The notes under the pieces are model-generated. The model did not search any database, was not told where the DNA came from, and worked only from the letters and a program-made list of their open reading frames with translations. 64,000 bases of DNA, taken from contig CAVTLK010000002.1 of NCBI GenBank assembly GCA_963735595.1, forward strand, positions 320,001 to 384,000, given 5' to 3'. How positions within the stretch are numbered: the stretch's first letter is position 1; each line of letters begins with the position of its first letter. The DNA is from an uncultured delta proteobacterium. Lineage in GTDB: Bacteria > Desulfobacterota > Zymogenia > Zymogenales > Zymogenaceae. This document shows positions 17,716 to 34,888 of the stretch, one piece after another. Made by a program: the position numbers and the translations under genes.

Positions 17716-18255
17716 TTAGGCGGCTACCATTCTCATATCACGCTTGAGCGTTTCCATGCGGATACGCCCGCGCTCCCGCGTTTTTTTGATCCCGCCGTCT
17801 ATCTTTTTTAGTTCGCTGAGGAGCTGCGCATCGCGCTGGTCGTGGCCGACGATCCACCGATGGAGGAGATCGCTTTCGAGACTGAGATGCTGTCTGAGGA
17901 TGTGGATGTATTGTGTAGCGTAATGAGGAAAGACCGCCCGCGCACCCTGATAGCCGAGGTCATAGGCCTCGATGACCTTGAGGAGAAACCGCTCGTATTT
18001 CCACAGGCTTGCGTGGGTTTCTTCACATTCCTGTCTGAGAGTTTCCACCCCGGGGCTTCCGAGGAGCGATAGAAGGAATTCCTCCCGTTTCATGTGGGAG
18101 ACATCGATATACATCTGCAGGAGTTCGATGATCTCCTTGAGCATATAAGGTGGAACCTCCTTATTCTGTTCCATCCGCCGGGCGGAGTGATCGAGCATCT
18201 CGAGCAGGGATTCTATGACCCGTTCTTCTTTCTTGACATATTCAATCGATTTCAT
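17716..18255 (-). CDS. Hemerythrin-like domain protein (degenerate ligands)
   Basis: Pattern EE..I, Y.D.SHMKREE, ETH, Y...LRQH...E of the hemerythrin/HHE family. Start at ATG 18255 with a GGAGG RBS. Confidence 0.7.
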   Translation of the reverse strand: MKSIEYVKKEERVIESLLEMLDHSARRMEQNKEVPPYMLKEIIELLQMYIDVSHMKREEFLLSLLGSPGVETLRQECEETHASLWKYERFLLKVIEAYDLGYQGARAVFPHYATQYIHILRQHLSLESDLLHRWIVGHDQRDAQLLSELKKIDGGIKKTRERGRIRMETLKRDMRMVAA

Positions 18256-18456
18256 ACTACCCACCTCCAAGACGTCATGTATCTGTGGGATTTTTGTTCG
18301 AAGCACCATCAAGGAGAGCCATTTACTATAAATTAGTCATGATACATCAGGTTTCAAGGCGTTATAGATCGCCTCGGAAAATAACAGAACTTCTTTTCAT
18401 GTGACGTAACAGAAAGGGGATATCCTCCTCTCATTGATCCTTCGCTTGTCCTTCCT

Positions 18457-19221
18457 TCATACCTTTTCCAGGATCTCTTTGGCCAGGTTCAGATAGGCCC
18501 GCGCCCCAACCGAGCTGACATCAAACAGGACCGCCGGATTGCCCCTCTTGGGGACTTCCGCCAGACGGGAGTTACGGGGAACGATCGTCTCAAATACCTT
18601 GGTCTTGAGGTCGCGTCTGAGGTCATAGGCCACCTCCTTTGATGTTGTAGTCCTTCCGTCCACCATAGTCAGGAGAAATCCGAGGAGCTTAAGATCCGGG
18701 TTATATCTTCCCCCCACGACGCGGGCCATCCTCATCAGACGTCCGATAGTCTTGAGTGCGAAGTATTCGCTCTGTACGGGAACCAGCAGGTAGTCGGCCG
18801 CGGCGATACCGGCCATCGTTACTGCGCCCAGCGAAGGGGGACAGTCTACGATGATGAACTCGTATTCCGCCTTGAGCACGTCGAGGATTCGCTTTATGAT
18901 GAGCAGGTCGTCGTTGATTGTGGAAAGGTAGAGCGTCTCCTCGTCATTTGTCCAGATGTTTGAGGGGATGAAACTAAGATACTCGATTTCGGTTCCGTGA
19001 ATGAGACGCTTCGGTTCGGCCTTATCGATAACGGCGTTGTACATCCCGCCGCGAAGCTGCTCCCGATCCCGTCCGAAGCTGATCCAGAGCCCGCACTGGG
19101 GATCAATGCCCACCACGAGGGTATTGCGCTCATACACGCCCAGGGAAGCGCCAAGATTAACCGCCGTGGTGGTTTTCCCAACCCCACCTTTTTGACTGGC
19201 TATCGTTATGACAATGCCCAT
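18457..19221 (-). CDS. ParA-family ATPase (likely ParC-like chemosensory array positioning protein)
   Basis: KGGVGKTTT deviant Walker A, IDPQ, DCPPSLG, VPVQSEYFAL; directly downstream of cheB. Confidence 0.9.
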   Translation of the reverse strand: MGIVITIASQKGGVGKTTTAVNLGASLGVYERNTLVVGIDPQCGLWISFGRDREQLRGGMYNAVIDKAEPKRLIHGTEIEYLSFIPSNIWTNDEETLYLSTINDDLLIIKRILDVLKAEYEFIIVDCPPSLGAVTMAGIAAADYLLVPVQSEYFALKTIGRLMRMARVVGGRYNPDLKLLGFLLTMVDGRTTTSKEVAYDLRRDLKTKVFETIVPRNSRLAEVPKRGNPAVLFDVSSVGARAYLNLAKEILEKV

Positions 19222-19245
19222 ACGACCGCACCTCTCATAAACGGC

Positions 19246-20364
19246 TCAATGTCCGTTGGTGACCATAAGGTCGATCATCGCCGGGATCTGCTGGAGGGAA
19301 AGGACCGTATCGACAACGCCGTCTGCGATGGCCGATTTCGGCATTCCGAAGACGAGAGACGTCTTCTCGTCCTGGGCAATGGTCCTGCCTCCCATGATCT
19401 TGATCGCCTTGAAACCCCGCGAACCGTCCTTGCCCATCCCCGTGAGGATAACCCCGATCGTCTTTTGGCCGAAAATCGCCGCGGCCGAATAGAATAGGGT
19501 GTCGATCGAGGGAGTCGGTTTCGCTTGATCAGTACCCGCCTGCTGAAGCCCTATTTGCGGCGCCAGAAAAGACTTCTTGATCGTTATATCGTAATCGCCG
19601 GGGGCTACCAGAACCTTCCCGCCCTCCACGATTTCGCCATCCTGGGCCTCCACGACCGGCAGATGGCAAACCCGGTTAAGCCTTTCCGCGAAGAAGCGCG
19701 TAAAGAAACGGGGCATATGCTGAACGACGACGATGCCGACCGGGAAATTATCCCTGATTTTGCTCAGGATAAACTCGACGGCCTTTGGCCCTCCCGTCGA
19801 GGCGCCGATGACGACTACCTTGTTGTCGGACAGCTGCATCAGCTCCTGTCTGGTGTACCCTGACAGCGGCCTCTTGGGTGCTTCATCATGCAGCCGCGCG
19901 TCCATAGCCGCATCTTCTGCCCCCTTGATAGACAGGTAATACTCCATGTTGATAGCCGCGGCCGCCCTTATCTTAGCGATGAGCTCCTCCTTCAGGAACT
20001 GAAAGTTGAGCAGCATCGATCCTTTCTGAGGCTTCGTGATAAAATCGACGGCGCCGAGGTTAATAGCCCGAATCGTGATATTGGCCCCTTCCTTTGTGAG
20101 TCCGGAAAGCATGATGACGGGCGCCTGGTATTGTTCGACGAGCTCCCGTAATGCCGACAAACCGTCCATAGTGGGCATGATCACGTCCATGGTCACGACA
20201 TCGGGCTTGAATTCAATGTACTTCTTGATCGCCTCTTTACCGTCGGCCGCCAGCGCCGCGATCTCGATATCGGGTGTTTCTTCGACGACCTGGGTAATAG
20301 CCCGCCTGATAATCGCGGAATCGTCTACGACCAGGACCCTTATCTTCTTGCTATCCATTTTCAA
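19246..20364 (-). CDS. cheB: Chemotaxis response regulator protein-glutamate methylesterase (intact catalytic triad)
   Basis: REC domain (VVDDS..VTMD..KP) plus GASTGG, VQHMP, LTGMGKDG. Confidence 0.95.
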   Translation of the reverse strand: MKMDSKKIRVLVVDDSAIIRRAITQVVEETPDIEIAALAADGKEAIKKYIEFKPDVVTMDVIMPTMDGLSALRELVEQYQAPVIMLSGLTKEGANITIRAINLGAVDFITKPQKGSMLLNFQFLKEELIAKIRAAAAINMEYYLSIKGAEDAAMDARLHDEAPKRPLSGYTRQELMQLSDNKVVVIGASTGGPKAVEFILSKIRDNFPVGIVVVQHMPRFFTRFFAERLNRVCHLPVVEAQDGEIVEGGKVLVAPGDYDITIKKSFLAPQIGLQQAGTDQAKPTPSIDTLFYSAAAIFGQKTIGVILTGMGKDGSRGFKAIKIMGGRTIAQDEKTSLVFGMPKSAIADGVVDTVLSLQQIPAMIDLMVTNGH

Positions 20365-20384: not shown

Positions 20385-23300
20385 CTATAGTTCTTCTTCC
20401 GGTTGATCCGGCGCCGGTGTTCGTTTGGGTTTGTAGCGTTCAAGCGTCTGATGCTTACGTATTGCCTTTTCCCGTTCTATGGCCAGATTTACCAATTCCA
20501 CTACGTCAAGTATCAGCGAGATAGAACCATCCCCCATGATTGAGGCGCCGGAAACTCCCTTGGTGTTGGCAAAATTCTTTTCAAGTGACTTGATGACGAT
20601 ATTGTCTTCCCCGACCAGCCGGTCGACCATCAGTCCAACCTCTCTGCCCTCGGCGGAAAGAATAACGATAAATAGATGCGTCGGCGGACTCGCGTCACCG
20701 GTTTGCCAGCCCATATTGGCCTTGAAGATTTCGCTGAGCTTGATAAGGGGCAGCACCTTGTCCCGTATCCTCAGGACCTGGTGGCTCTCGATCGTCTCTA
20801 TCTCTTCGATACCGATGCGGACAGTCTCAATGATAGACACCAGAGGGATCGCGTACACACGATCGGATATCCCCACAATCAGGGCCTGAATAATCGCCAG
20901 CGTCAGCGGCAGCTTGATCATAAAAGAGGTTCCGTTGTCCTTCACCGTCATGACTTCGACGGTTCCTTTCAGCTTTTCAATGTTTCTTTTAACAATGTCA
21001 AGCCCAACTCCCCTGCCGGAGACCTTACTGACCTTCCTGGCCATTGAGACCCCCGGCTTGAAGAGGTAGTCAAGGGCCTCACGGTCGGACACGCGGGAAA
21101 GCTCCTGGGCGGCAACCTCACCGTCGGCTACCATTCGCTTCTTCACGTCTTCCAGGTCGATTCCCTTTCCGTCGTCCTTTATATCTATGATGACCTGGTT
21201 ACCTTGATGGTACGCCGAGATTGAAAGCGTGCCTTCCTCCGGTTTTCCTTTCTTCTTTCGTTCTTCCCGGGACTCAATGCCGTGGTCTATCGAGTTGCGG
21301 ATGATGTGGATGAGGGGATCTCCGATTTCCTCGATGACCGACTTATCCAGTTCGGTCTCTTTGCCGGTAATCACGAGTTTGATATCCTTGTCCATGGCGT
21401 CGGCGAGATCGCGCACGAGCCGGGGAAAACGGGAGAAAAGCTGATTGATTCCGACCATCCTGACCCGCATGACTCCCTCCTGCAGGTCGTTGCTGATCCG
21501 TCCCAACTCCATTGCCGATGACTCGAGATCGAGGGCGAGCTGCCGAAGCAGGGAAAGCTCCCGCTTATTGAGTTTATCAAGATCATACATCTCCCGATAT
21601 ACGTCTCTGAAAACCCCGGTCAGCTGGGAGAATGTCGCCCTGTTTACGGCGAGCTCTCCTACAAGATTCATGATCGTATCAACACGCTCTGTTTCGACAC
21701 GCAGTGTCTGTCGCGAGTATGGAGCATCTGCGGGAAGCTCTCCGTCGTCTCCGGTCGGCTCACCGCCATCGGCGCCTCCCGGCCCGGCGCCCGCGTGGGT
21801 TTGCTCAGCGGAATCGATGGATACCGATTCCGACATACCGCTCAGGTCCATACGATCGCCGCCGATGTGTTCGGGGGACGGCTCGTCGGCGGCATCAACC
21901 GCGTCTTGCAGACCCTCGGCATCGGGGCGGGTTTTACCGGATACCGGGAGGGATTGGGAGCCCGTCAGCGAACCGATTTCTTCCTTCAATTTCGCATAAG
22001 ACTCCTCAAGGGCGGGGAGAATCGTTAACCCATCGTCAGTAACCGCCGATCCGTTGTTCAGGATCGTAAGCTGCTTATCGACGATATCAATCATCGAATA
22101 GTATCCCATGAATTTTGCCGAGGATTTGAGGCTCTCGAGGGCCTTCTTGCATACCTCGATACTTTCGGGAACGTCGGCCTTCTGTTTGATATGGGAGATA
22201 CAGGTATTGATCGTATCCAGGTGCTGGCCGGCTGCAGAAACGAAGATATCAAGGAGCTCCTCGTCCTCCGTGGTCTCCTGTTCCGAAGGCTCAGTAACGT
22301 CCACTGTCTCGGCCTTAACTACGGATTTCCTGAGCCCGCTCTTGAGATCGATGAGCCCGTTTATCAAAAGGTCCAAATCGGCCTGCTTAAGGCCCTCCTT
22401 GTCTGCCATGTATGTATCGATGAGCGTACGAATCGAGTCAAGGCGCTCTACGATGGTGTCGTATTCCATGTAGTGGGCCGATCTCCTGAGCTTCTGGAGG
22501 ACATCGAGCACCTCGGAGAGCGACTCCCGGTCGGCCGTCCTCTCCCGGATCTTCTGTTGATGTTTATCTATTATCGAGAAGAGATCGACGGTCGCCGACA
22601 GGAAGATGTCGATCAGCTCTTCGTCGTGACCGGCTGTCAGATCTTCAACAACTTCTTTGTTTGCCTGAGGGCCGCGCGCTGCAGGCGAGCCGCTGCGCCG
22701 CGGCTGACTCGGTTGAATCGGCTGAGTTACGCGCGCGGTATGGTCGTCCTTGAAGAATGACACGATGTCCTTGGCGAGCTTGAGGCTGATGCCGTTGACC
22801 GACTCCAGCTCTTCAATACGCGCATTTCTGAGCGACCCTATGGAACGAAAGCCGGCCTTATAGAGGAGTTTCACCTTGGAGCCGCCCACCCCCGGTATGA
22901 TGGTAAACTCCTTTATGGCCTGGTCGAGGGAGAGATCGCCGCCCGTATCTTTTGAGCTTTGTTCAGCTATCCCTCCCTGCCCGGATTTGTGTTTCCTGAC
23001 AAAGTCCTTAATATGGTCTAATGCCTTGTAGAAACTCAGGAGCTCGGTGCTGTTTATGTTTTCGCCTTCCTCTAAGAGCGCCAGAGCAGAATTCCTCATC
23101 CCCGCCAGTACGTTCTTGAGCTCATCGTAGCCAAAATACTCTATCGAGGAGGAAAAGCTGCTCACCAGATCCAGGAAGCGGTTCAGCTCCTCGATGGTCA
23201 TGTTGCCTTCAAGAGTCCCGAGCCCCCGCTCAAGGTCCTTTATGTGATGGGCAACGATCTCCCCGATACCCTCGTCGAAGATATCCGTCTGGCCCGTGCC

Positions 23301-23801
23301 GCCGCCCGCGCGATCGTCCGGTATGTCCTGATTCTTCCGCTCGTCACGTGTGGGAGGCGTCATCTCCGGCTCAGGACTCCGGTCAACAGGGCCTGCGGGA
23401 CTTATAAGGTCTTTTTCGCCCATAGATTCGAACGCGCCCCTGATCTTCGTTATGATCCGGTCGGTATCGGTCAACTCTTCGCCGGTTGTCGAGAGGTCAT
23501 TGAGAAGAGAATCGATACCGTCCTTTCCGTAAAACAGGACGTCGATGATTTCCCGGTTTATCTCGATCTTGCCCTGGCGAACCCGCTCGAGACACCCCTC
23601 CAATACGTGGAGGAAATCACCGAGTTTTACCAGGCCGATATAGTTTGCCGAGCCTTTGATGGTGTGTATGGACCGGAAGATCTGATTGAGGACCTCCTTG
23701 TTTTGGGGTTCCTCGAGGATCCGGTTGAGCGATTCTTCCAATTCCGCCAGGTGCTCGTTGCTCTCTATAATGAATTCCTTGAGCAATTCTTCGTCATACA
23801 T
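20385..23801 (-). CDS. cheA: Chemotaxis histidine kinase with extended N-terminus (one Hpt, three Hpt-like repeats, HhH module)
   Basis: FRSIHTIKGSA Hpt, dimerisation domain, HIIRNSIDHGIE, DDGKG, SGRGVGLD, C-terminal CheW-like P5 domain. Confidence 0.95.
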   Translation of the reverse strand: MYDEELLKEFIIESNEHLAELEESLNRILEEPQNKEVLNQIFRSIHTIKGSANYIGLVKLGDFLHVLEGCLERVRQGKIEINREIIDVLFYGKDGIDSLLNDLSTTGEELTDTDRIITKIRGAFESMGEKDLISPAGPVDRSPEPEMTPPTRDERKNQDIPDDRAGGGTGQTDIFDEGIGEIVAHHIKDLERGLGTLEGNMTIEELNRFLDLVSSFSSSIEYFGYDELKNVLAGMRNSALALLEEGENINSTELLSFYKALDHIKDFVRKHKSGQGGIAEQSSKDTGGDLSLDQAIKEFTIIPGVGGSKVKLLYKAGFRSIGSLRNARIEELESVNGISLKLAKDIVSFFKDDHTARVTQPIQPSQPRRSGSPAARGPQANKEVVEDLTAGHDEELIDIFLSATVDLFSIIDKHQQKIRERTADRESLSEVLDVLQKLRRSAHYMEYDTIVERLDSIRTLIDTYMADKEGLKQADLDLLINGLIDLKSGLRKSVVKAETVDVTEPSEQETTEDEELLDIFVSAAGQHLDTINTCISHIKQKADVPESIEVCKKALESLKSSAKFMGYYSMIDIVDKQLTILNNGSAVTDDGLTILPALEESYAKLKEEIGSLTGSQSLPVSGKTRPDAEGLQDAVDAADEPSPEHIGGDRMDLSGMSESVSIDSAEQTHAGAGPGGADGGEPTGDDGELPADAPYSRQTLRVETERVDTIMNLVGELAVNRATFSQLTGVFRDVYREMYDLDKLNKRELSLLRQLALDLESSAMELGRISNDLQEGVMRVRMVGINQLFSRFPRLVRDLADAMDKDIKLVITGKETELDKSVIEEIGDPLIHIIRNSIDHGIESREERKKKGKPEEGTLSISAYHQGNQVIIDIKDDGKGIDLEDVKKRMVADGEVAAQELSRVSDREALDYLFKPGVSMARKVSKVSGRGVGLDIVKRNIEKLKGTVEVMTVKDNGTSFMIKLPLTLAIIQALIVGISDRVYAIPLVSIIETVRIGIEEIETIESHQVLRIRDKVLPLIKLSEIFKANMGWQTGDASPPTHLFIVILSAEGREVGLMVDRLVGEDNIVIKSLEKNFANTKGVSGASIMGDGSISLILDVVELVNLAIEREKAIRKHQTLERYKPKRTPAPDQPEEEL

Positions 23802-23892: not shown

Positions 23893-24654
23893 TTATATGC
23901 TCGTATACAGTATATGGATTCCGACAAATAACATTACGAAAATAAAGAACTCCCTGAGCGAGTCTGTGCGCATACGCCGCGATATCTGAGAGCCGAGATA
24001 CGATCCGATAATTACGCCCGGCAGCCCCCACGCAACCGCCATAGGAGACAGGCTCCCGCCGAGCGACAGATGGGCGGTCAGGCCCATAACGACAACGATG
24101 AACATAACCGCAAGGGCCGTGCCGACGGCCACTTCCATACTGTAGTTGAGCCTTTTGACCATGGACGGCACAATAAAATCGCCGACGCCGATGGACAAGA
24201 GACCGCTCAGGAACGAAAAGAAGAACGGGATATACCCGACACGGGCGGCCTGTCTTACGCCTACGCGTCGGAGCTCGTTGTCCATATACCAATCCCGGCC
24301 GGAAAGGAAGAAGATGGCCAAACCGACGGCCGCCGTTCCCAGTCCCAGCCTCAGCACGTTATCGGGGAGGTACGTGCCCACGACGGAGCCGGCTATTACC
24401 ATCGGCAGCGCCAGGCCTGCGTAAAAGAGAGCCACTTTGATGTCTACCCTCCCGGACCGCCAGTATGCGATGGTCCCGACCCCCATCCCCCCTACCTGGA
24501 TAGCCAGCGCAGTGGTGATGGCCTCCGGTGGCTGAATGCGGTACAGGAGGATTAGCACGGGCGACCACAAGATCCCCCCTCCAATGCCGAGCATAACGGC
24601 TACCGTGGAAATGGCAATCCCAAAAAGGAAGATCGTAAACGGAAACTGCTCCAT
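23893..24654 (-). CDS. TauE/SafE (TSUP) family transporter
   Basis: MLGIGGGIL..P..L, SGLLSIGVG, AVGTAL, G.IIGSYLGS; about 8 TM helices with an internal repeat. Confidence 0.85.
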   Translation of the reverse strand: MEQFPFTIFLFGIAISTVAVMLGIGGGILWSPVLILLYRIQPPEAITTALAIQVGGMGVGTIAYWRSGRVDIKVALFYAGLALPMVIAGSVVGTYLPDNVLRLGLGTAAVGLAIFFLSGRDWYMDNELRRVGVRQAARVGYIPFFFSFLSGLLSIGVGDFIVPSMVKRLNYSMEVAVGTALAVMFIVVVMGLTAHLSLGGSLSPMAVAWGLPGVIIGSYLGSQISRRMRTDSLREFFIFVMLFVGIHILYTSI

Positions 24655-24660
24655 AGGGTT

Positions 24661-25284
24661 TTATCTCTTCAACCGGGATAAATCAGCCCTGGCGAGGTTG
24701 AAATCCCTTGTCATCTCATCGAGTTGTTCCATCTCTTCAGAGATACGCTCCATATCGGCCAGTACGACCTCGTGGTCGCCTTTCTCATACGCCGCCTTCA
24801 TGGACCGGACCCGCTCACGGCACCTGTTGCCCGTAATACGCACCACTCCAATAACCTCACCGAAATCGGAGACGACGTCGTTGATAAACCGTCCCAGTCT
24901 CCCGATTTCATCGTTCACATAGACCGGGATCGGATTCCCGAAATCACCCTGTGCCATATTCGCCGTAACGGCAAACATACGCCGGAGGGGTATGGTAATC
25001 TTTTTAACGAACAGAATCAGTACAACGCCCGTTACGAAGGACTGGATCGCGATCAGGAAAATCACCTTTCTCTTTATCTGATCGATGGGGGCCGTAGCCG
25101 GGCCGCTACCCATTTGCGCCTGATACTGACCCTGGGAACCGGGTCCCAAACCCCGATTCGGCTCCTGAGCGTTGATGTCAATGAGAAACTCAAATCCGAG
25201 CACTAACGAGGAAAAGACGATGATACAGACGTATATCATCATCCTCCTGGTCAGCGTGACGGTTCTTGTATTCGTTGGTTTCAT
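24661..25284 (-). CDS. 2-TM HAMP-domain protein, MCP-like but lacking the signalling tip
   Basis: Two TM segments, HAMP (PL..M..MAQGDF..DEIGRLG..IN), short coiled-coil tail. Confidence 0.8.
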   Translation of the reverse strand: MKPTNTRTVTLTRRMMIYVCIIVFSSLVLGFEFLIDINAQEPNRGLGPGSQGQYQAQMGSGPATAPIDQIKRKVIFLIAIQSFVTGVVLILFVKKITIPLRRMFAVTANMAQGDFGNPIPVYVNDEIGRLGRFINDVVSDFGEVIGVVRITGNRCRERVRSMKAAYEKGDHEVVLADMERISEEMEQLDEMTRDFNLARADLSRLKR

Positions 25285-25286
25285 CG

Positions 25287-26099
25287 TTATATAAATATAC
25301 CCAACACGACGTTTCTATTGTCCCAGATCATCTTGATGCCGGTCAGAAAGACGAAGAGCGAAAAGAACGTCTTCAAAAGAGATCCCTTGGCGAGCCTGTT
25401 GATGATCGGACCCAGCTGGCCTCCGATCAAGACGCCGCCCATCGTGAAGATCGCAACCTCCCACCGGATCTGGCCCTCCCAGATATTGATGGATGTTGCC
25501 ACCCATCCGGCCAGCCCTTCCACGACCACGGTCGTGGCAATAGCCCGATGGACGTTCATCTTGTATACCCGCTCCAGGAGGGGAAACGAGGTCTCGGCGG
25601 TACCGATGGAGGAAAGACCGCTCGAAATACCCCCGATGAACGGAACCCACGCGAAGGGGTAGATTTCCTCAGTCAAAAAACCTTCGCGGTCTCCGTATCG
25701 TTTTTCCGCCATAGATGCGAAAGTCCAGACGGCGCAACACGTTACGACGAGTCCGAAAAAGATCTTAAGGATCGCCTCATCGAGCACCATCACCAGGTGC
25801 AGGCCGATAACGACGCCGGGTATGGTCAGCAGTACCATCGGGAACGCCATGGAAAACTCGATCTGCCTTTGCCTGGTGTACGCGACCATGCCTGACGTCA
25901 TGCCGCAGAGCTCCGTGACCATGCCGGTCCCTATCGCCTCCGGCACGCTCATCTTGAGTGCGTAGACGAAAATGGGGAAAAAGATAATGGCGCCCCCGAA
26001 CCCGCTGCTGGTGGCCATCGATGCCGCCAGGATAGCCACCGGAAACATAAACCAGTAGTGAGTCGTCGCAGACCAGATGTAGTGACCAACGGCTTCCAT
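25287..26099 (-). CDS. TauE/SafE (TSUP) family transporter
   Basis: SSGFGGAIIFFP, AIGTGM, SGLSSIG, AIATT, GGVLIGGQLG. Confidence 0.85.
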   Translation of the reverse strand: MEAVGHYIWSATTHYWFMFPVAILAASMATSSGFGGAIIFFPIFVYALKMSVPEAIGTGMVTELCGMTSGMVAYTRQRQIEFSMAFPMVLLTIPGVVIGLHLVMVLDEAILKIFFGLVVTCCAVWTFASMAEKRYGDREGFLTEEIYPFAWVPFIGGISSGLSSIGTAETSFPLLERVYKMNVHRAIATTVVVEGLAGWVATSINIWEGQIRWEVAIFTMGGVLIGGQLGPIINRLAKGSLLKTFFSLFVFLTGIKMIWDNRNVVLGIFI

Positions 26100-26112
26100 G
26101 TGATCCTTCCCT

Positions 26113-26841
26113 TTACACTTTCGTTAGATCGACCTGATAGAACTTGAATGATTCCACCAGGGACTTCAGCTCGCCGATATTGGAGTAAAGTGTGTTCAAC
26201 TCCCGTCGAATATCTTCGGTAATTTCCTTTTCCTTAAGGACCTCAACGCTGTTATAGACGCTGTCGACCGACCGGACGGCCGAATTATTGATCTTACCCA
26301 CCATGAGCAGTACTTCCTGAAAATCGGCGGTTATATCGTTAATGATAGAGCCAAGCTGGCCGATCTCGTCCTTCGTGTAGACCGGCATCGTCGTGGAGAG
26401 GTTTCCCCGTGATATCTCCCGGGCGGCGTGTACCATTTCGTCCAGCGGCCCGGCCACCTCCTTGATGAAGAACCAGAGCGCCACGCCGACGCAAAAGATG
26501 GTGATGGCCAGGATAATGAGCATCCGTTTCTGGAGATGGTAGAGGGGGGCGAAAACCTGCTCGTAATCAAGGTCTTCTACGGACCCCTCGATATTCTGGG
26601 CCCGGGCCTCGGCGACGAAATTGCCCTGCATCTTGTTGGTAAGCCTGGCTTCCCCGATCTCCCAGATCAATTCAAGGCTCATGGAGATCGAGACAGCCAC
26701 GATCAACAGAAAATAGATGAGCAGCTTTTTCTTCAGGTTGGTGAAGACCGCGCGTTTTCTCCGCAGCAAAAGGCTGCTTCTGCGTTCTGTTTTTCTCCGA
26801 TCAGTTCCATCCCAATCGGGACTCCCGTTTTTATACGTCAT
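26113..26841 (-). CDS. 2-TM HAMP-domain protein, MCP-like but lacking the signalling tip
   Basis: Two TM segments, HAMP (PLDEM..ISRGNL..DEIGQLG..IN), tail ending LKSLVESFK. Confidence 0.8.
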   Translation of the reverse strand: MTYKNGSPDWDGTDRRKTERRSSLLLRRKRAVFTNLKKKLLIYFLLIVAVSISMSLELIWEIGEARLTNKMQGNFVAEARAQNIEGSVEDLDYEQVFAPLYHLQKRMLIILAITIFCVGVALWFFIKEVAGPLDEMVHAAREISRGNLSTTMPVYTKDEIGQLGSIINDITADFQEVLLMVGKINNSAVRSVDSVYNSVEVLKEKEITEDIRRELNTLYSNIGELKSLVESFKFYQVDLTKV

Positions 26842-26922: not shown

Positions 26923-27297
26923 TTAATCTTCCAGAATTTTAACGATCCGCTCCCTGAGCTCTTCCGGTTTGAATGGCTTGAGGATGACCGCCTTGATCCC
27001 CATCTTGAGGGCCGCTTCTTCAAGGAAGTGCTTTTCTTCCTCCTGCCGCAACGTCAGGAGTACCAGCCTGGCCGTCGGGTCTTCCTTCAGGATCTGTTCT
27101 GCCGCAGCAAAACCGTCGGTGTTTCTCATGGTGACGTCCAGGGTTACCAGATCGGGCTTGAGCTCGCGAAATAGCGCGACCGCCTCGTCGCCATCCTTTG
27201 CCTCTCCGATCACCTTCAGTTCACCGCCGTCCAACGCTTCCTTGATCCGGTTCCTCATGAACGACGAATCATCCACCACCAATAACCTCTTAGCCAT
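26923..27297 (-). CDS. cheY: CheY-like single-domain response regulator
   Basis: VVDDSSFMR, LVTLD, ILKPF. Confidence 0.88.
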   Translation of the reverse strand: MAKRLLVVDDSSFMRNRIKEALDGGELKVIGEAKDGDEAVALFRELKPDLVTLDVTMRNTDGFAAAEQILKEDPTARLVLLTLRQEEEKHFLEEAALKMGIKAVILKPFKPEELRERIVKILED

Positions 27298-27469: not shown

Positions 27470-29845
27470 TTACTGCCCGGCTGCCTTGATCGCTTCTTCC
27501 TTCTCTATTTCCTCGGTGGTGCGGTATTTGAACTGCTGCATCAAGCCGACGTTGGCGCCCGATGATTCCACGATGTTCCGCTGGAATTCGGACACCTGTG
27601 ATGCCTGTGCGGCAACGCGCTCCGCGTTCCTGGATTCGTCTGCGACCGACTTGTTGACGGTATCGGCGATACTAACGACCGACTCGATGTTCTTTTCCAC
27701 GGTCGTAGTGGCGCGTCCCGACTCGCCGGTCATCTCCACGATTTCCTGCGCAAGAGACGCCAGGTCGTCCATCGACCTGAGGACTTCTTCGATACTCCTC
27801 AGCTGCTGGGCCATGGCGTCGGCAACGATCTGGTTGATCTTGACGGCCTCGTTACCACCATCCACACCGATCTGCAGGAACTCGGCAGCCTGCTTGGCAA
27901 GTCCGGAGTTTGTCCTGGTAACTTCGCGGTTGGTCTCGACGTTCTTCAGAATGGTGGAAAGGGTCTGGGCGATGTCGCCGGCGGCCTTTGATCCCTGCTC
28001 AACTGCCTTGTTGGCGTTCTTAATAAGATCGGAGATCTCCTTGGTTGCGTCGGCGCTGCGCTCGGCCAGCTTCCGCACCTCGTCGGCGACGACCGCAAAG
28101 CCCTTGCCGTGTTCCCCGGCACGGGCCGCCTCGATGGCGGCGTTAAGCGCCAGGAGGTTGGTCTGCTCGGCGATGTCGTTGATGACCTCGACGATCTCAA
28201 ACACCTGCTCGGTCGACTCCGTAATGGCCTTCATGCCTTCCTCGTTCAGCCGCACACCCTCCTGGCCCTTCTGCACGATACCCATGACCTCCTCGGCGCG
28301 GTCGGACGCTTTGGCCGCCTCCTGGGACACGGTGTTAGCGATATTCAGGGCGTCGTTAAGCTTCTTGACCGCCTCGACGCTGCCTATACGAACCCGCTCG
28401 GCCTCCCGGGCAACCTCGGTAAGCGACGCTGCCATCTCGTTGACCGCCGATGATGTCTGGGCCGCGTTGGTGGCCTGGGCGTTGGCGCGCTCCTGAACCT
28501 GCCGTGAGGCCTTGGCCACCTCGCCCGCCAGAGACAGCGACTCGTGAGAACTGCGCGCGGCCTCGTCGGTGACGTTCGTGATCCGCTCAAGCGATCCCCT
28601 GAGCGCGCCCATCAGGCCCGCGTTGTCTGCAGACAGCGGCGCAGCCGACTCGCTGTAGCTACGCACGAGGCCGGCGTTCCTGGCGACCCTGGCCACGATG
28701 CCTTCGAGCCTGAAGACAAACTCGTTAAATCCCCGGGCAAGCATCCCGATCTCGTCATCGCCCGCGGCGGGAAGCCGCCTGGTCAGGTCGGCGCCGGCGC
28801 CCGCCAGGGCGGTCATCTCGTTTGCGATCCTGATGATCGGCTGGGCAATGGCGCGGGCAAGCAGATAGCCGACGCCGGCCGCTATGAACAGGATAAGGAT
28901 GGTCATCAGGGTTGCGTAGTTCCGTGTCGCATTCAATGACGCGAGGACCTCGTCTTCACCCTGCTCAGCGACCAGGATCCAGTTGTAATCCGCAAGGTAA
29001 TCAACAACCCCGAAGACGTCGTTGCCCAGATAGTTCTTCCACCGCCCAACGGTGAGGTCTTCCCCGCCTCCCTCCTCTTTGCCGGAGATCACGTCGGGGA
29101 GGGACTTAGCTTTGAGGAAGGCGTCGCTTTTGCTCAAATCGAGCTCGAGGATGGAGCTCTCCTTGATCATGCCCTCTTTCTTCAGCTCGTCGACAAAACG
29201 TGACTCCGAAATCATCAATCCCGTACTCGCGTCGATCAGATACACCTCACCGGTCTCTCCCAGGGACATAGATTCTCTGAGGAGGTTGCTGAGGTACTTC
29301 ATGTTGACCTGCTCAACAAAGACGCCGACTGTCGTATTGCCCCTCTTAACGGCAGAGGCGAGTACGAGAATCGGGTTTTTGGTACGGTTACTGAAAACCA
29401 TTTCGTATTGTCGTTCGGCCTTTCCGCTCATTATGTCCTTGTAATATTGGCGCTCTTTGATCGTAATTGTCCCGATATACCTCGGTTCGCTGTCCGCCAC
29501 TATATAACCGCCGCCCCCCTCGCAGTAGCTGATACCTTCAAGGTAGTCGGCCCTGCTTTTAACCAATGCCCCGAAAAAGATATTTGCCAGCGCATAATCT
29601 CCTGATTCAAGCGACGACGTAAACTCGAGGTCCGTCGGAAAGTCGTTAAGATCATGTCCTCTTTCTGACATGAAAGAACGCACCAAACCGTCCGCTGAAT
29701 CAACCAAAGACGTTAGACGTTCCCGGGTAAGATTTTCCGTGTCGGACTTGATCCGGTAATATGCCAGGACCGAGATCGTCAGCGCCGGTACGAGGGCCAT
29801 AAGGACGATCGCGATGATCAGCCTGGTTCGCAGTGTAAACTTCAT
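27470..29845 (-). CDS. Methyl-accepting chemotaxis protein (periplasmic dCache-like sensor, HAMP, long signalling domain)
   Basis: 2 TM, HAMP ([11 protein letters not shown]), hairpin tip [40 protein letters not shown]. Confidence 0.95.
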
Positions 29846-31626: not shown

Positions 31627-33438
31627 CTATGACTTGACCATGAGCGCCCGGGCAATCTCTTGGGCCAGGAGATAATCCGGGACAATTCTGTCTGCCAATC
31701 CTTTTTGTATGACCTGTCCGGCCATTTCGGGTGAAAGGCACGTATCCGTCTGTTGAACGATGATGGTCCCGCCCACCCGCTTGAGCTCCTGGGCGCCCTC
31801 GAGCCCGTCAACACCTTCCCCCGTCAGGACCACGCCGATCGCCCTCTCACCGAACGCTTCGGCCAGGGACATCAGAAGCATGTTGAATGAATTGCGGTGC
31901 TCAAAATCAAACGGCCGATCGTTGAGCCTGATACTACTGGCGGCTCCTTCCCGAAGGACCGTCATGTAGCGGCTGTCGGAGCATAAGTAACAGACGCCGT
32001 TGTTCATAATCTCGCCGTCCTGAGCCGGTTTAACGGGGATCGGCGAGTAGGAATTCAGGTATTCACAGAACGTCCCGATAACCTCTTCGGGCATATACTG
32101 AACGATGAGGACTGCGGCCTTCAGGTCCTCGGGGAATCGAGGGAGTATTCTCAAGAGGACGCTGTAGCCGCCCAGCGCCGTTCCCATGGCAATTACGGAA
32201 TCGGCATTCAGCCGTTTGCCCTCGGTCCTTGTATTTTTCCCTTTTTGCCTCAGGCGGATGTGCTGCACGCTGGAGATCGTGACATTCGCCGCCCTTTTGA
32301 CCGTTTCGACGATGTTCTTCTTCTGGACCTCCAGGCTCAGATCCTGACGTGTAGAAGGCTTTGCGATGAAGTCAATGGCCCCGAAACGCAGCGAATCAAA
32401 CGTGGCCGCGGCTCCTTCCTGCGTGTACGCTGAGAGCATGACCACCGGCGTGGGCTGCATGATCATGATGTGCTTAAGCGCCGTCAGGCCGTCCATCTCG
32501 GGCATATTGACATCCATAGTCACCACGTCCGGCTTTAAGTGCGCCACTTTCTCAACGGCCTCCTTGCCGTCCTTTGCCTGGCCGACAACCTGTATCTGCT
32601 CATCCTGGGAAAGAATATCGGTGATCCCTTTTGTAATGATTGCGGAGTCATCGACGACAAGAACACGGATAGCCGCGCTCTGCGTTTTGTCCGGGGCAGG
32701 TTCAAAATCCGTCAAGATATCCTGTTCGAGCACGAAATCGCCCCGGTGGGATTCATCAATAGAGACCAGGGATTCTATGAGGAGCTGCTCCCATTTCTTT
32801 ACAATGCTTCTCTTGGGAGCGGCTGTGTTTCTCTTGGTGGAAAACGAGCCGCTCTGCCAGGAAAGGATATCCTTGAGCGCCTGCTCCCCCTCGAGCGTAT
32901 CGGTTTGCGCATGCACGATTTCCCCGTTCTCGAAGAAGACCGCCCCTTCTCTGTTGCTGTCATTTATATAGACAGCACTGCTGAGGCGGGATATACAGTT
33001 GATCTGGATTATGTCCGTGACCTGGATTCCTTCTATGGCGCCGTCAAAGCTTTTCTTTGGCAGAGAAAACGTATTTTGAATAAGGCTCACCAGATTCCTG
33101 ACTACGAACGGTTTTTCGATGTATCCGATGGATCCCATGCCTTGGACTTCCCTGGTGACGTCAGGGCTCGAGTGTGCAGTCATGACGATGACGCCGATAC
33201 CGGGATTTATTTGCCTGGCGGAAACGATAAGCTCAAATCCGTTCATTTCGGGCATATATATATCGGTTATCAAAAGGTCTATCAGAATATTATTAATGAT
33301 ATCAAGGGCCTGTGCGCCAGACGATGCCGTTAAGATCGAGGCCTCCTGGTAGGTGCGCTTAAGGTTCGTCTTGACGACATCCAGCAACGGTTGGTCGTCG
33401 TCGACCAGCAGGATCGTCCTTTTTTCATCTGCGAACAT
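31627..33438 (-). CDS. REC-DUF4388(PATAN-like)-REC-CheB-like hybrid; methylesterase domain degenerate
   Basis: REC1 (VDDD..ITD..KP), FDGAIEGIQVTDIIQ..GAVFFENGEIVHA..W..GSF, REC2, CheB fold with GTALGG/VQYMP. Confidence 0.85.
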   Translation of the reverse strand: MFADEKRTILLVDDDQPLLDVVKTNLKRTYQEASILTASSGAQALDIINNILIDLLITDIYMPEMNGFELIVSARQINPGIGVIVMTAHSSPDVTREVQGMGSIGYIEKPFVVRNLVSLIQNTFSLPKKSFDGAIEGIQVTDIIQINCISRLSSAVYINDSNREGAVFFENGEIVHAQTDTLEGEQALKDILSWQSGSFSTKRNTAAPKRSIVKKWEQLLIESLVSIDESHRGDFVLEQDILTDFEPAPDKTQSAAIRVLVVDDSAIITKGITDILSQDEQIQVVGQAKDGKEAVEKVAHLKPDVVTMDVNMPEMDGLTALKHIMIMQPTPVVMLSAYTQEGAAATFDSLRFGAIDFIAKPSTRQDLSLEVQKKNIVETVKRAANVTISSVQHIRLRQKGKNTRTEGKRLNADSVIAMGTALGGYSVLLRILPRFPEDLKAAVLIVQYMPEEVIGTFCEYLNSYSPIPVKPAQDGEIMNNGVCYLCSDSRYMTVLREGAASSIRLNDRPFDFEHRNSFNMLLMSLAEAFGERAIGVVLTGEGVDGLEGAQELKRVGGTIIVQQTDTCLSPEMAGQVIQKGLADRIVPDYLLAQEIARALMVKS

Positions 33439-33447
33439 ACACGGCTC

Positions 33448-34488
33448 CTACTGTTCCTTGAGCAGACCTGCGACAAAAGATGGCATGGCGTGATCGTCCA
33501 TGACGTGTTGTGCTATCCCCTGCCGTGATATCTCTTCGTTTGAATCGGGCAGAAAATAGCCGGATCGATCCTCCATGACTGTCACCCCTCCGCGATCATT
33601 GACGGCCGAAAACCCGGATACGCCGTCATGTCTTACTCCGGCGAATAATATACCAACGGTCCCGGCGCCGAAGGTCTCGGAGCCGGATATCATCATCGCG
33701 TCTATCGGGTTTCCGCCCGACGGCCCGAGCTCCATGAAGACGCTATTATTAGTATTGCGAGTGAACGTAAGATACCGATCGAGGGAATTGATATATACTG
33801 TAGCGGCCTCGATCTCAATGCCGTTTCTGGCGCTCTTCACGGCCAATGGGGCCACGGCGTCAAACTTTTCCACGAATGAGTCTATGATAACCGGAGAGAT
33901 ATCCTGCGTTACGATAATGGGAAAGGGGAGGTTTTTCGGAAGCCTGCAGATAAGGCGAATGATGCTGTTTGGACCTCCCAGCGACGTTCCGATGACAAGG
34001 ATCTTATTGTGCGTCCACGCGGGGGCGGCCGTGCGTCTACCGCCTTTTCTGTGAAGGATTCGGGCCCGCCTGATCATATTAATATCGGCGGTCGATGCGA
34101 TCTTGACCCTGTTGATAAGATCCTCCTTCTGCACCTCGATATCCCGCGAGATCGATCCCGACGGCTTAGGCAGGAAGTCCACCGCGCCGAGGCGAAGCGC
34201 CTCGAAGGTTATGTCACCCTGGTGGGTAAGGGCGCTCACGATGACGACCGGCGTTGGAACGTGGATCATTATATGTCTGAGTGCGCGGATCCCGTCCATC
34301 TCGGGCATATCGATATCGAGTGTTACTACATCCGGTCGCAACCTCTTTATCTCCCGTATGCCGTCGATTCCCGTCCTTCCGTATCCAACCACTTCGATCT
34401 GAGGATCAGTCTGGAGGATCTTCGTGATGGCTTTTCTCATGTACTCGGCGTCGTCAATGACGACCGCCCTGATTCGCTTTCCTTCCAT
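33448..34488 (-). CDS. REC-CheB-like protein; catalytic His missing
   Basis: REC (IDDA..TLDIDMP..KP), GTSLGG, VTQDIS in place of VQHMP, FAGVRHDG. Confidence 0.85.
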   Translation of the reverse strand: MEGKRIRAVVIDDAEYMRKAITKILQTDPQIEVVGYGRTGIDGIREIKRLRPDVVTLDIDMPEMDGIRALRHIMIHVPTPVVIVSALTHQGDITFEALRLGAVDFLPKPSGSISRDIEVQKEDLINRVKIASTADINMIRRARILHRKGGRRTAAPAWTHNKILVIGTSLGGPNSIIRLICRLPKNLPFPIIVTQDISPVIIDSFVEKFDAVAPLAVKSARNGIEIEAATVYINSLDRYLTFTRNTNNSVFMELGPSGGNPIDAMMISGSETFGAGTVGILFAGVRHDGVSGFSAVNDRGGVTVMEDRSGYFLPDSNEEISRQGIAQHVMDDHAMPSFVAGLLKEQ

Positions 34489-34888
34489 TCGGGCGGATAT
34501 CCTCGTTTTCGTTTAGAGTCTTGGCGATAAGCTCGGAGAGGCTTTCCATCAAAAACGGCTTTTGAAGGTAGCCAAAGAGGCCTTCCCGATCGAGAGACTT
34601 CTTAGCCCCTTTATCGAGATTATTGGAGAGAAGGACTATCTTCGCGGTCGGCTTTATCCTTCTTACCTCCAGAAAAAAGTTCACGCCACCCATACCCGGC
34701 AGCACTGAATCGGTAATAATAAGGGAGAATTCCTGTTTGCCAAGCAATTGAAGGGCGGTTTCGCCGCTGTTGGCCAGTTCGATATGTATTTCGGGGAAAA
34801 CCCCGACGATATTCCTTTTAAGGAACTGCGAGTATGTGTTTTCTTCATTGACAAGCAGAAGCGCCGCGCCCTTTTTTATTTTTGCCAT
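34454..34888 (-). CDS. Single-domain response regulator (atypical acidic pocket)
   Basis: LLVNEE..LIITDSVLPG..QKPF; first gene of the chemosensory operon. Confidence 0.8.
   Translation of the reverse strand: MAKIKKGAALLLVNEENTYSQFLKRNIVGVFPEIHIELANSGETALQLLGKQEFSLIITDSVLPGMGGVNFFLEVRRIKPTAKIVLLSNNLDKGAKKSLDREGLFGYLQKPFLMESLSELIAKTLNENEDIRPNGRKANQGGRH

Follow-up and report, generated by a model that had tools for sequence, protein, structure and literature searches.

A HAMP–TauE gene block between cheY and cheA

We analyzed a window of 64,000 nucleotides (nt) from an uncultured delta proteobacterium of the family Zymogenaceae (contig CAVTLK010000002.1, positions 320,001 to 384,000, of assembly GCA_963735595.1), in which the list of open reading frames and Pfam matches place a block of four genes, all on the minus strand, between cheY and cheA of a chemosensory cluster. 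The block alternates two HAMP membrane proteins without a chemoreceptor hairpin tip, which we term type A and type B tipless HAMP proteins, with two members of the TauE transporter family:

26113..26841, minus strand: HAMP-A, a type A tipless HAMP membrane protein of 242 amino acids (aa) with a basic N-terminus, two predicted transmembrane (TM) helices, a loop of ~47 aa, a HAMP domain at residues 125-169 and a helical tail
25287..26099, minus strand: TauE1, 270 aa, a member of an acidic-loop TauE clade with E63 and E169
24661..25284, minus strand: HAMP-B, a type B tipless HAMP membrane protein of 207 aa with model helices at residues 11-39, 65-111, 126-167 and 171-193
23893..24654, minus strand: TauE2, 253 aa, a member of the same clade with Q53 and D159 and a predicted BacA/UppP-like fold

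The intergenic gaps measure 81 nt from cheY to HAMP-A, 13 nt to TauE1, 2 nt to HAMP-B, 6 nt to TauE2 and 91 nt to cheA, confirming the two HAMP–TauE pairs with gaps of 2-13 nt described in an earlier note on this DNA, both of whose quoted peptides are present in the open reading frames; such gaps are compatible with translational coupling of the four genes. The 242 and 207 aa proteins score 44.9 and 31.7 bits against the Pfam HAMP profile (cut-off 25), and the 270 and 253 aa proteins score 135 and 144 bits against TauE (PF01925; cut-off 32.6). The HAMP proteins had been taken as closer paralogs than the diverged TauEs, a difference that vanishes on alignment (26% identity over 210 aa for the HAMP pair and 25% over 253 aa for the TauE pair). 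The host genome carries no other close copy of either HAMP protein and has two unrelated TauEs elsewhere. Because the four-gene order recurs in five of nine family relatives (G003, G006, G007, G008 and G009, the last with the order interrupted by a contig break) and in G057, a genome of another family, the block is not a chance arrangement. Promoter and terminator scans gave signals at chance level, and no plasmid match was found. In G003, which belongs to the same genus, the genes for MCP (methyl-accepting chemotaxis protein), type B, TauE2 and CheA look split (L027:9941-19375), more likely through sequencing indels than through decay.

Anatomy and phylogeny of the tipless HAMP proteins

Both HAMP proteins consist of two hydrophobic helices flanking a 40-47 aa loop, a HAMP domain and a tail. 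In the AlphaFold model of type B (mean predicted local distance difference test score, pLDDT, 86), the second HAMP helix extends to residue 167 and a hairpin runs back to residue 193. Neither protein matches the MCP signaling domain PF00015 in Pfam, and the profile match to the cluster's MCP is confined to TM2–HAMP. As they have no MCP tip, these proteins are not HtrII-like transducers, contrary to the earlier proposal of a transducer resembling that of sensory rhodopsins. No known output domain was found in the tails by Pfam or by structure comparison of the type B model, for which Foldseek gave no match at E <= 0.001 and VIA returned common helical arrangements only (best Z 8.9; NarQ TM–HAMP fragment 8.8). 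A methylation-site consensus for the cytoplasmic helices occurs in 4 of 53, 1 of 60 and 0 of 69 alignment rows, but the cluster's own MCP is without it too. Conserved positions include type B residues E32 and K73 at the outer ends of the TM helices, an N-x-Q-E motif after HAMP and an F-x-F/L-Y motif at the end of the tail. We rejected the idea of a broken MCP remnant, as the reading frames are open and the tails are conserved across the family.

A profile search of 1.84 billion representative sequences recovered 81 proteins at E <= 1e-30, most of them stand-alone and roughly 200-280 aa long. Full-length family representatives span ~175-290 aa, and representatives outside this range were dropped; the phylogenetic tree has 155 rows. 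Types A and B can be aligned end to end. In the tree the midpoint root separates them (support 88), and each groups with relatives labeled by gene context. By sequence, types A and B are thus two old subfamilies, and a recent tandem duplication was rejected. A third subfamily of 19 representatives (P0057, P0059, P0066, P0076 and relatives) has a longer tail and branches apart from both. For the range beyond the host's phylum, Atlas labels of type B name Thermodesulfobacteriota and Myxococcota. A search among longer proteins yielded poly-HAMP kinases and a single ParA fusion; the fusion, P0173, is a single database protein in which a ParA/AAA_31 part is joined to a whole type B sequence, as either a genuine fusion or a frameshift artefact.

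Type A resides with che genes and type B usually precedes TauE

We scored gene context for 169 distinct members of the family, taken from loci in genomes and metagenomes, collapsing repeats by their last 60 residues and setting aside as undecidable those loci with <400 nt downstream and no match; the metagenome loci are the best 80 of 170 confirmed with type B as the query. The gene upstream of type A is cheY in 40 of 41 distinct proteins, the remaining one lying at a contig end, and the downstream gene is cheA in 33, TauE1 in five (six genomes of families f1 and f6) and a contig end in three. Two further type A genes, beyond these 41, also lie between cheY and cheA, and the only place where TauE1 was seen is behind type A, in families f1 and f6. 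Type A thus belongs to a resident CheW–MCP–CheY–A–CheA–ParA–CheB cluster, to which TauE1–B–TauE2 has been added in the window. This gene order replaces the earlier picture of an inserted cassette that arose by a retained tandem duplication, since A is the resident gene between cheY and cheA, and A and B are subfamilies usually found at separate loci.

Among decidable type B genes, 45 of 57 from genomes and 47 of 55 from metagenomes have a TauE gene following them; a further 2 genome and 14 metagenome cases lie at contig ends. The HAMP–TauE pairing is thus found repeatedly, in several families of anaerobic bacteria. Within 4.5 kb of type B, CheB or receiver genes occur in 33 loci, a ParA-like gene in 24 (upstream) and CheA in 11, alongside NMT1-type ATP-binding cassette (ABC) transporter genes for a permease (21 loci), an ATPase (20) and a binding protein (13). 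At one locus (L207:998-4703), the neighbors of type B are a pair of PilZ genes and a gene for REC-PATAN-REC-CheB, which adds a link to cyclic di-GMP (c-di-GMP).

Type B and TauE2 co-occur across genomes

We scanned genomes for the HAMP family, the TauE2 clade and marker CheB proteins. In an order of 70 genomes, type B occurs in 34 and the TauE2 clade in 33, with both present in 33; in 8 of these 33 (G444, G442, G368, G459, G462, G463, G464 and G153) the two genes lie on separate contigs or far apart. Type B and its TauE thus occur together even where the genes are unlinked. The earlier note named independent occurrence of TauE and HAMP homologs as grounds for dropping its idea; the second pair, B–TauE2, is not independent in this sense, and for the first pair TauE1 stands beside type A in only six genomes. 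Type A is present in 31 of the 70 genomes, 26 of which have both types, although these lists missed type A in G183 and G088. Marker CheB proteins occur in 41 of the 70 genomes, including 33 of the 34 with type B. A second order gives the same 8 of 27 genomes for B–TauE2 and for full-length REC-PATAN-REC-CheB (one B gene is cut by a contig end), and among 401 genomes of the phylum the HAMP family is found in 21, the TauE2 clade (E < 1e-60) in 22 and both in 20, in scans that scored just 6-7 candidates for each genome. Four family relatives without the block (88-94% complete) also gave no full-length REC-PATAN-REC-CheB match.

The TauE partners carry an acidic loop substitution

TauE1, TauE2, the TauE encoded after type B in G127 and two proteins from family f40 form a single clade (FastTree support 87). 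The clade is marked by an aspartate or glutamate in the second Gly-rich loop, where other TauEs have glycine: the acidic residue is present in 32 of 32 clade rows and in 0 of 44 other TauEs of the sampled genomes (2 gapped), a control set from which we drew the acid-free loop as a TauE feature. The first Gly-rich loop is kept, and position 53 (63 in TauE1) is glutamine or glutamate throughout. TauE2 D159 aligns with TauE1 E169, and the orthologue alignment marks W30, Q53, D/E159, H195 and H247 as conserved residues of a predicted TauE2 pocket.

25593..25595, minus strand: codon of TauE1 E169, the acidic residue in the second Gly-rich loop by clade alignment
24178..24180, minus strand: codon of TauE2 D159, a position at the start of model helix 158-167 that is acidic (D or E) in 69 of 69 orthologues in the alignment

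No solved TauE relative was found by sequence. The TauE2 model (pLDDT 88) superimposes on BacA (5OON) with a Z-score of 16.2 and a root-mean-square deviation of 3.5 over 241 residues, the next match having a Z-score of 4.8. BacA is described as having two re-entrant loops that meet mid-membrane and bind an anionic head group via backbone amides and helix N-termini (PMC5852022), and in the TauE2 model D159 stands at the beginning of the second helix of this kind. By analogy with BacA, D159 may lie in the pocket and alter or block anion binding. Sulfur compounds are the predicted cargo of TSUP proteins, whose function is described as poorly characterised (PMC5840216); in the clade studied here, plain sulfite export is disfavored because the acidic loop, by the BacA fold analogy, would line the anion pocket. 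The sulfite or sulfate ligand of the earlier note is not supported, given the acidic substitution in the second loop of both TauEs and a host in which dsrA was not found. A complex prediction with two type B chains and TauE2 scored 0.18 against a mark of 0.32, with controls not folded, and so speaks neither for nor against a contact. In family f40 (two genomes; L273:584-2268, plus strand, and L274), an acidic-loop TauE gene directly follows a stand-alone MASE3 sensor gene, which gives the clade a second tie to a sensor-type membrane protein.

The chemosensory cluster and its predicted output

Around the HAMP–TauE block, the cluster contains the following genes:

26923..27297, minus strand: CheY, directly upstream of type A
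20385..23801, minus strand: CheA, 1138 aa, assigned by Pfam
27470..29845, minus strand: the sole MCP of the cluster, 791 aa, with dCache_1, HAMP and a long cytoplasmic hairpin of roughly 28 + 30 heptads
31627..33438, minus strand: a REC-PATAN(DUF4388)-REC-CheB protein, a marker of this chemosensory system, whose CheB domain is without catalytic Ser and His
18457..20364, minus strand: an intact CheB (19246-20364) and, after it, a ParA-family ATPase (18457-19221), assigned by Pfam and a residue check

The DUF4388 region of the REC-DUF4388-REC-CheB protein is a PATAN domain, a type of domain that in Synechocystis has PilB1 and PilC as binding partners (10.1101/2021.06.11.447907). The host genome, 93% complete, has PilT above its cut-off and two PilB-like ATPases below theirs; FliG, flagellin and dsrA were not found in it. 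Flagellar chemotaxis was rejected as an output on the missing FliG and flagellin. A PATAN regulator in the cluster, pilus motors in the host and no flagellar markers together suggest, in part by analogy with Synechocystis, that the output is type IV pili rather than flagella. The class of Ca. Zymogenus, the nearest named relative, is described as fermentative and without anaerobic respiration (10.1101/2021.03.22.436540).

The host genome also has 15 GGDEF matches, 8 of them near full length, and type A in the window carries an Arg-rich N-terminal motif:

26779..26814, minus strand: residues 10-21 of type A, W-x-G-x-D-R-R then E-R-R, expanded in relatives; a putative c-di-GMP site

The window sequence reads W-D-G-T-D-R-R with a later E-R-R, and the form W-x-G-x-[DEN]-[RKQ]-R occurs in 7 of 60 type A rows, all near the TauE1-linked proteins. 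It resembles the Arg-rich c-di-GMP motif of Cle in its aromatic-x-G-x-D-R-R core, further Arg pairs and probably unstructured setting, and differs in having Trp for Tyr/Phe, no Pro, no DRR-x11-(R/K)RxxD spacing and an N-terminal position on a membrane protein. The Cle ARR module, defined by tandem [YF]xGP[DE][RK]R or by DRR-x11-(R/K)RxxD in the descriptions cited (PMC5677366, PMC7382256), is not present in the window's type A.

Several further features of the cluster stand apart from the block. Two of its three CheB domains look inactive by the positions of the catalytic triad: all three residues occur only in 19246-20364, the CheB of 31627-33438 has Ala and Tyr at the Ser and His positions, and that of 33448-34488 (minus strand) has Asp at the His position. 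CheA (20385-23801) contains a helix-hairpin-helix domain at residues 300-352 and Hpt-like repeats seen by eye, and these segments are possible docking sites for the tipless proteins. A hemerythrin-family protein (17716-18312, minus strand) follows ParA and has no counterpart at that place in G006 or G007. The receiver protein that heads the cluster (34454-34888, minus strand) has Asn-Glu-Glu where the acidic pocket usually starts and is possibly atypical. Elsewhere in the host, a second, smaller chemosensory cluster with MCP, CheY and CheA (G000:C5:129265-142531) lies ~8 kb from a pilT gene.

Comparison with known transporter-coupled systems

A transporter acts as co-sensor in DctA/DcuS. SoxT1B (PMC11582611) and CbrA (PMC13022988) are likewise cases in which a transporter or transporter homologue serves signaling; these three systems feed a repressor or a histidine kinase, do without any TauE or tipless HAMP protein, and are not reported to feed CheA. 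Closer in anatomy are the Af1503-like receptors of the Archaeoglobus Af1505-Af1502 operon (PMC4834066), which share a membrane HAMP protein without recognised effector and an operon with a transporter. As described there, HAMP is the sole cytosolic part of Af1503, and its coupling partners are a STAC protein that stands alone and a transporter of the MgtE type; the proteins studied here instead have a hairpin tail after HAMP (type B helices reach residue 193 of 207), a TauE transporter and a chemosensory cluster. Af1503-like receptors are often coupled to a STAC gene (60-90 aa), for which there is no room between the four genes; STAC is not among the fold matches of the type B model, although the tail may still be related to it.

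Sensory rhodopsin II and HtrII resemble the HAMP–TauE set in that a transporter-fold protein is proposed to signal sideways to a two-TM HAMP protein with little extracellular sensor. They differ in a full MCP signaling hairpin and a rhodopsin partner, whereas the proteins here have no hairpin tip and a partner from PF01925, with a BacA-like predicted fold, in place of a retinal-binding rhodopsin; sequence matches to this system are weak. Sequence analysis has placed TSUP and microbial rhodopsins in one superfamily (PMC7176098). Compared with TauE/SafE proteins at large (TSUP, PF01925, TC 2.A.102), the altered TauEs share the Pfam match and the first Gly-rich loop and differ in the D/E of the second loop, Q/E at position 53/63 and the link to signaling genes. 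The HAMP–TauE set is therefore outside the MCP/HtrII, rhodopsin-pair and strict Af1503 groups, and would be a variant of transporter-coupled sensing. No description of a HAMP–TauE pairing appeared among the literature matches listed, in a search that left subscription journals and supplements outside its reach.

A proposed transporter-derived sensor for a chemosensory array

We propose, tentatively and with slightly less than even confidence, that each altered TauE is a transporter-derived sensor and that its HAMP partner relays the signal to a chemosensory system whose predicted output is type IV pili. The anatomy, gene order, co-occurrence, acidic loop substitution and lack of flagellar markers in the host are direct observations, from which we infer a TauE–HAMP contact, a ligand, a signal direction and a docking site. 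TauE2 and type B would pack side by side in the membrane, and a ligand or ion at the predicted central pocket (D159 and Q53 in TauE2; E169 and E63 in TauE1) would shift the TM helices and HAMP domains of the partner dimer. Free sulfite would be a less likely ligand than a cation, an amine or an anion bridged by a metal. Because a hairpin tip for binding CheW or CheA is absent, the long MCP of the cluster would serve as docking site for the conserved tail, or type A would do so in the role of adaptor, and CheA output would reach the pilus motor via the REC-PATAN protein. In the window's lineage, type A has its own TauE, and its Arg-rich N-terminus may add a c-di-GMP input. A fuller version, which we consider somewhat unlikely as a whole, is that a TauE subfamily turned from anion exporter to receptor subunit of a split chemoreceptor, with sensing, transduction and kinase control on separate polypeptides; TauE would signal sideways to a tipless, two-helix HAMP protein, which would connect to a CheA array by way of a partner (the MCP, or pairing of type A with type B). 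Anaerobes without flagella would steer their type IV pili in this manner, and the type A N-terminus would bring in c-di-GMP as a further input.

Several observations weigh against this proposal. BacA is reported to bind its anion using glutamates and calcium (PMC5852022), and an acidic residue thus does not exclude anions; by the same analogy, a metal-bridged anion is a possible TauE ligand. The profile alignment of TauE2 with BacA is weak (probability 13%) and does not reach the loops, and the predicted pocket position of D159 comes from secondary structure and overall fold. TauE is missing behind 12 of the 57 type B genes from genomes and 8 of the 55 from metagenomes, and 33 of 38 decidable type A cases have no adjacent TauE, so a fixed one-to-one HAMP–TauE pair is not general. 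Among the 41 marker-CheB genomes, 8 have no type B; G088, 99% complete, has type A only; and in G112, a single-contig genome, B–TauE2 is remote from the che genes and a search for REC-PATAN-REC-CheB gave no match over its full length. The co-occurrence counts overstate independence because the genomes are kin and often share one operon, and the distance correlation (r = 0.90) is expected from shared descent alone; 8 of 76 pairs with >92% identity were dropped ahead of counting. The fusions whose occurrence the earlier note had suggested checking did not appear, as a weak search of longer proteins found no HAMP–TauE or HAMP–MCP fusion.

HAMP domains usually relay signals inward from the membrane, which speaks against a reversed direction, an alternative we judge unlikely, in which the HAMP protein regulates TauE as a subunit, turning its transport on or off on a cue from the chemosensory system or c-di-GMP. 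This reversal also leaves unexplained the type A proteins that stand between cheY and cheA without TauE, and type B, the widespread TauE partner, has no Arg-rich stretch; it draws support from the Arg-rich motif near TauE1-linked type A proteins, the GGDEF proteins of the host, the ABC transporter genes often found downstream, and Af1503-like effector-less receptors near transport genes, where STAC is proposed to regulate solute transport (PMC4834066). The recurrent ParA-like gene upstream of type B, the P0173 fusion and the lack of a known output domain in the tail would fit a scaffold or landmark, improbable to the same degree, in which the HAMP proteins and altered TauEs anchor or position the array with a ParA-family ATPase and carry no sensory signal. 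P0173, however, is one sequence on one contig, the conserved TauE2 pocket residues suggest a predicted binding site, and B–TauE2 lies far from ParA in the 70-genome order.

Ordinary transport, with the TauEs as sulfite or sulfonate permeases that work with a neighboring ABC importer and a che link due to operon hitchhiking, appears very unlikely to us. Both TauEs score well above the Pfam cut-off, TSUP proteins are predicted movers of sulfur compounds (PMC5840216), and the NMT1-type ABC genes found after B–TauE2 in ~20 loci fit a transport role and count against a sensor. Yet the acidic substitution is found in none of the 44 other TauEs, TauE2 co-occurs with type B even when unlinked, and the window's cluster contains no ABC or sulfur genes.

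The proposed transporter-derived sensor can be probed directly by mutation, given one acidic position and the BacA-like fold by which it is located. If true, the proposal would describe a new input route to chemosensory arrays, in which a transporter homologue acts as sensor via a receptor unable to bind CheA, and would bear on two open questions, the partners of effector-less HAMP receptors such as Af1503 and the roles of TauE proteins besides sulfite export.

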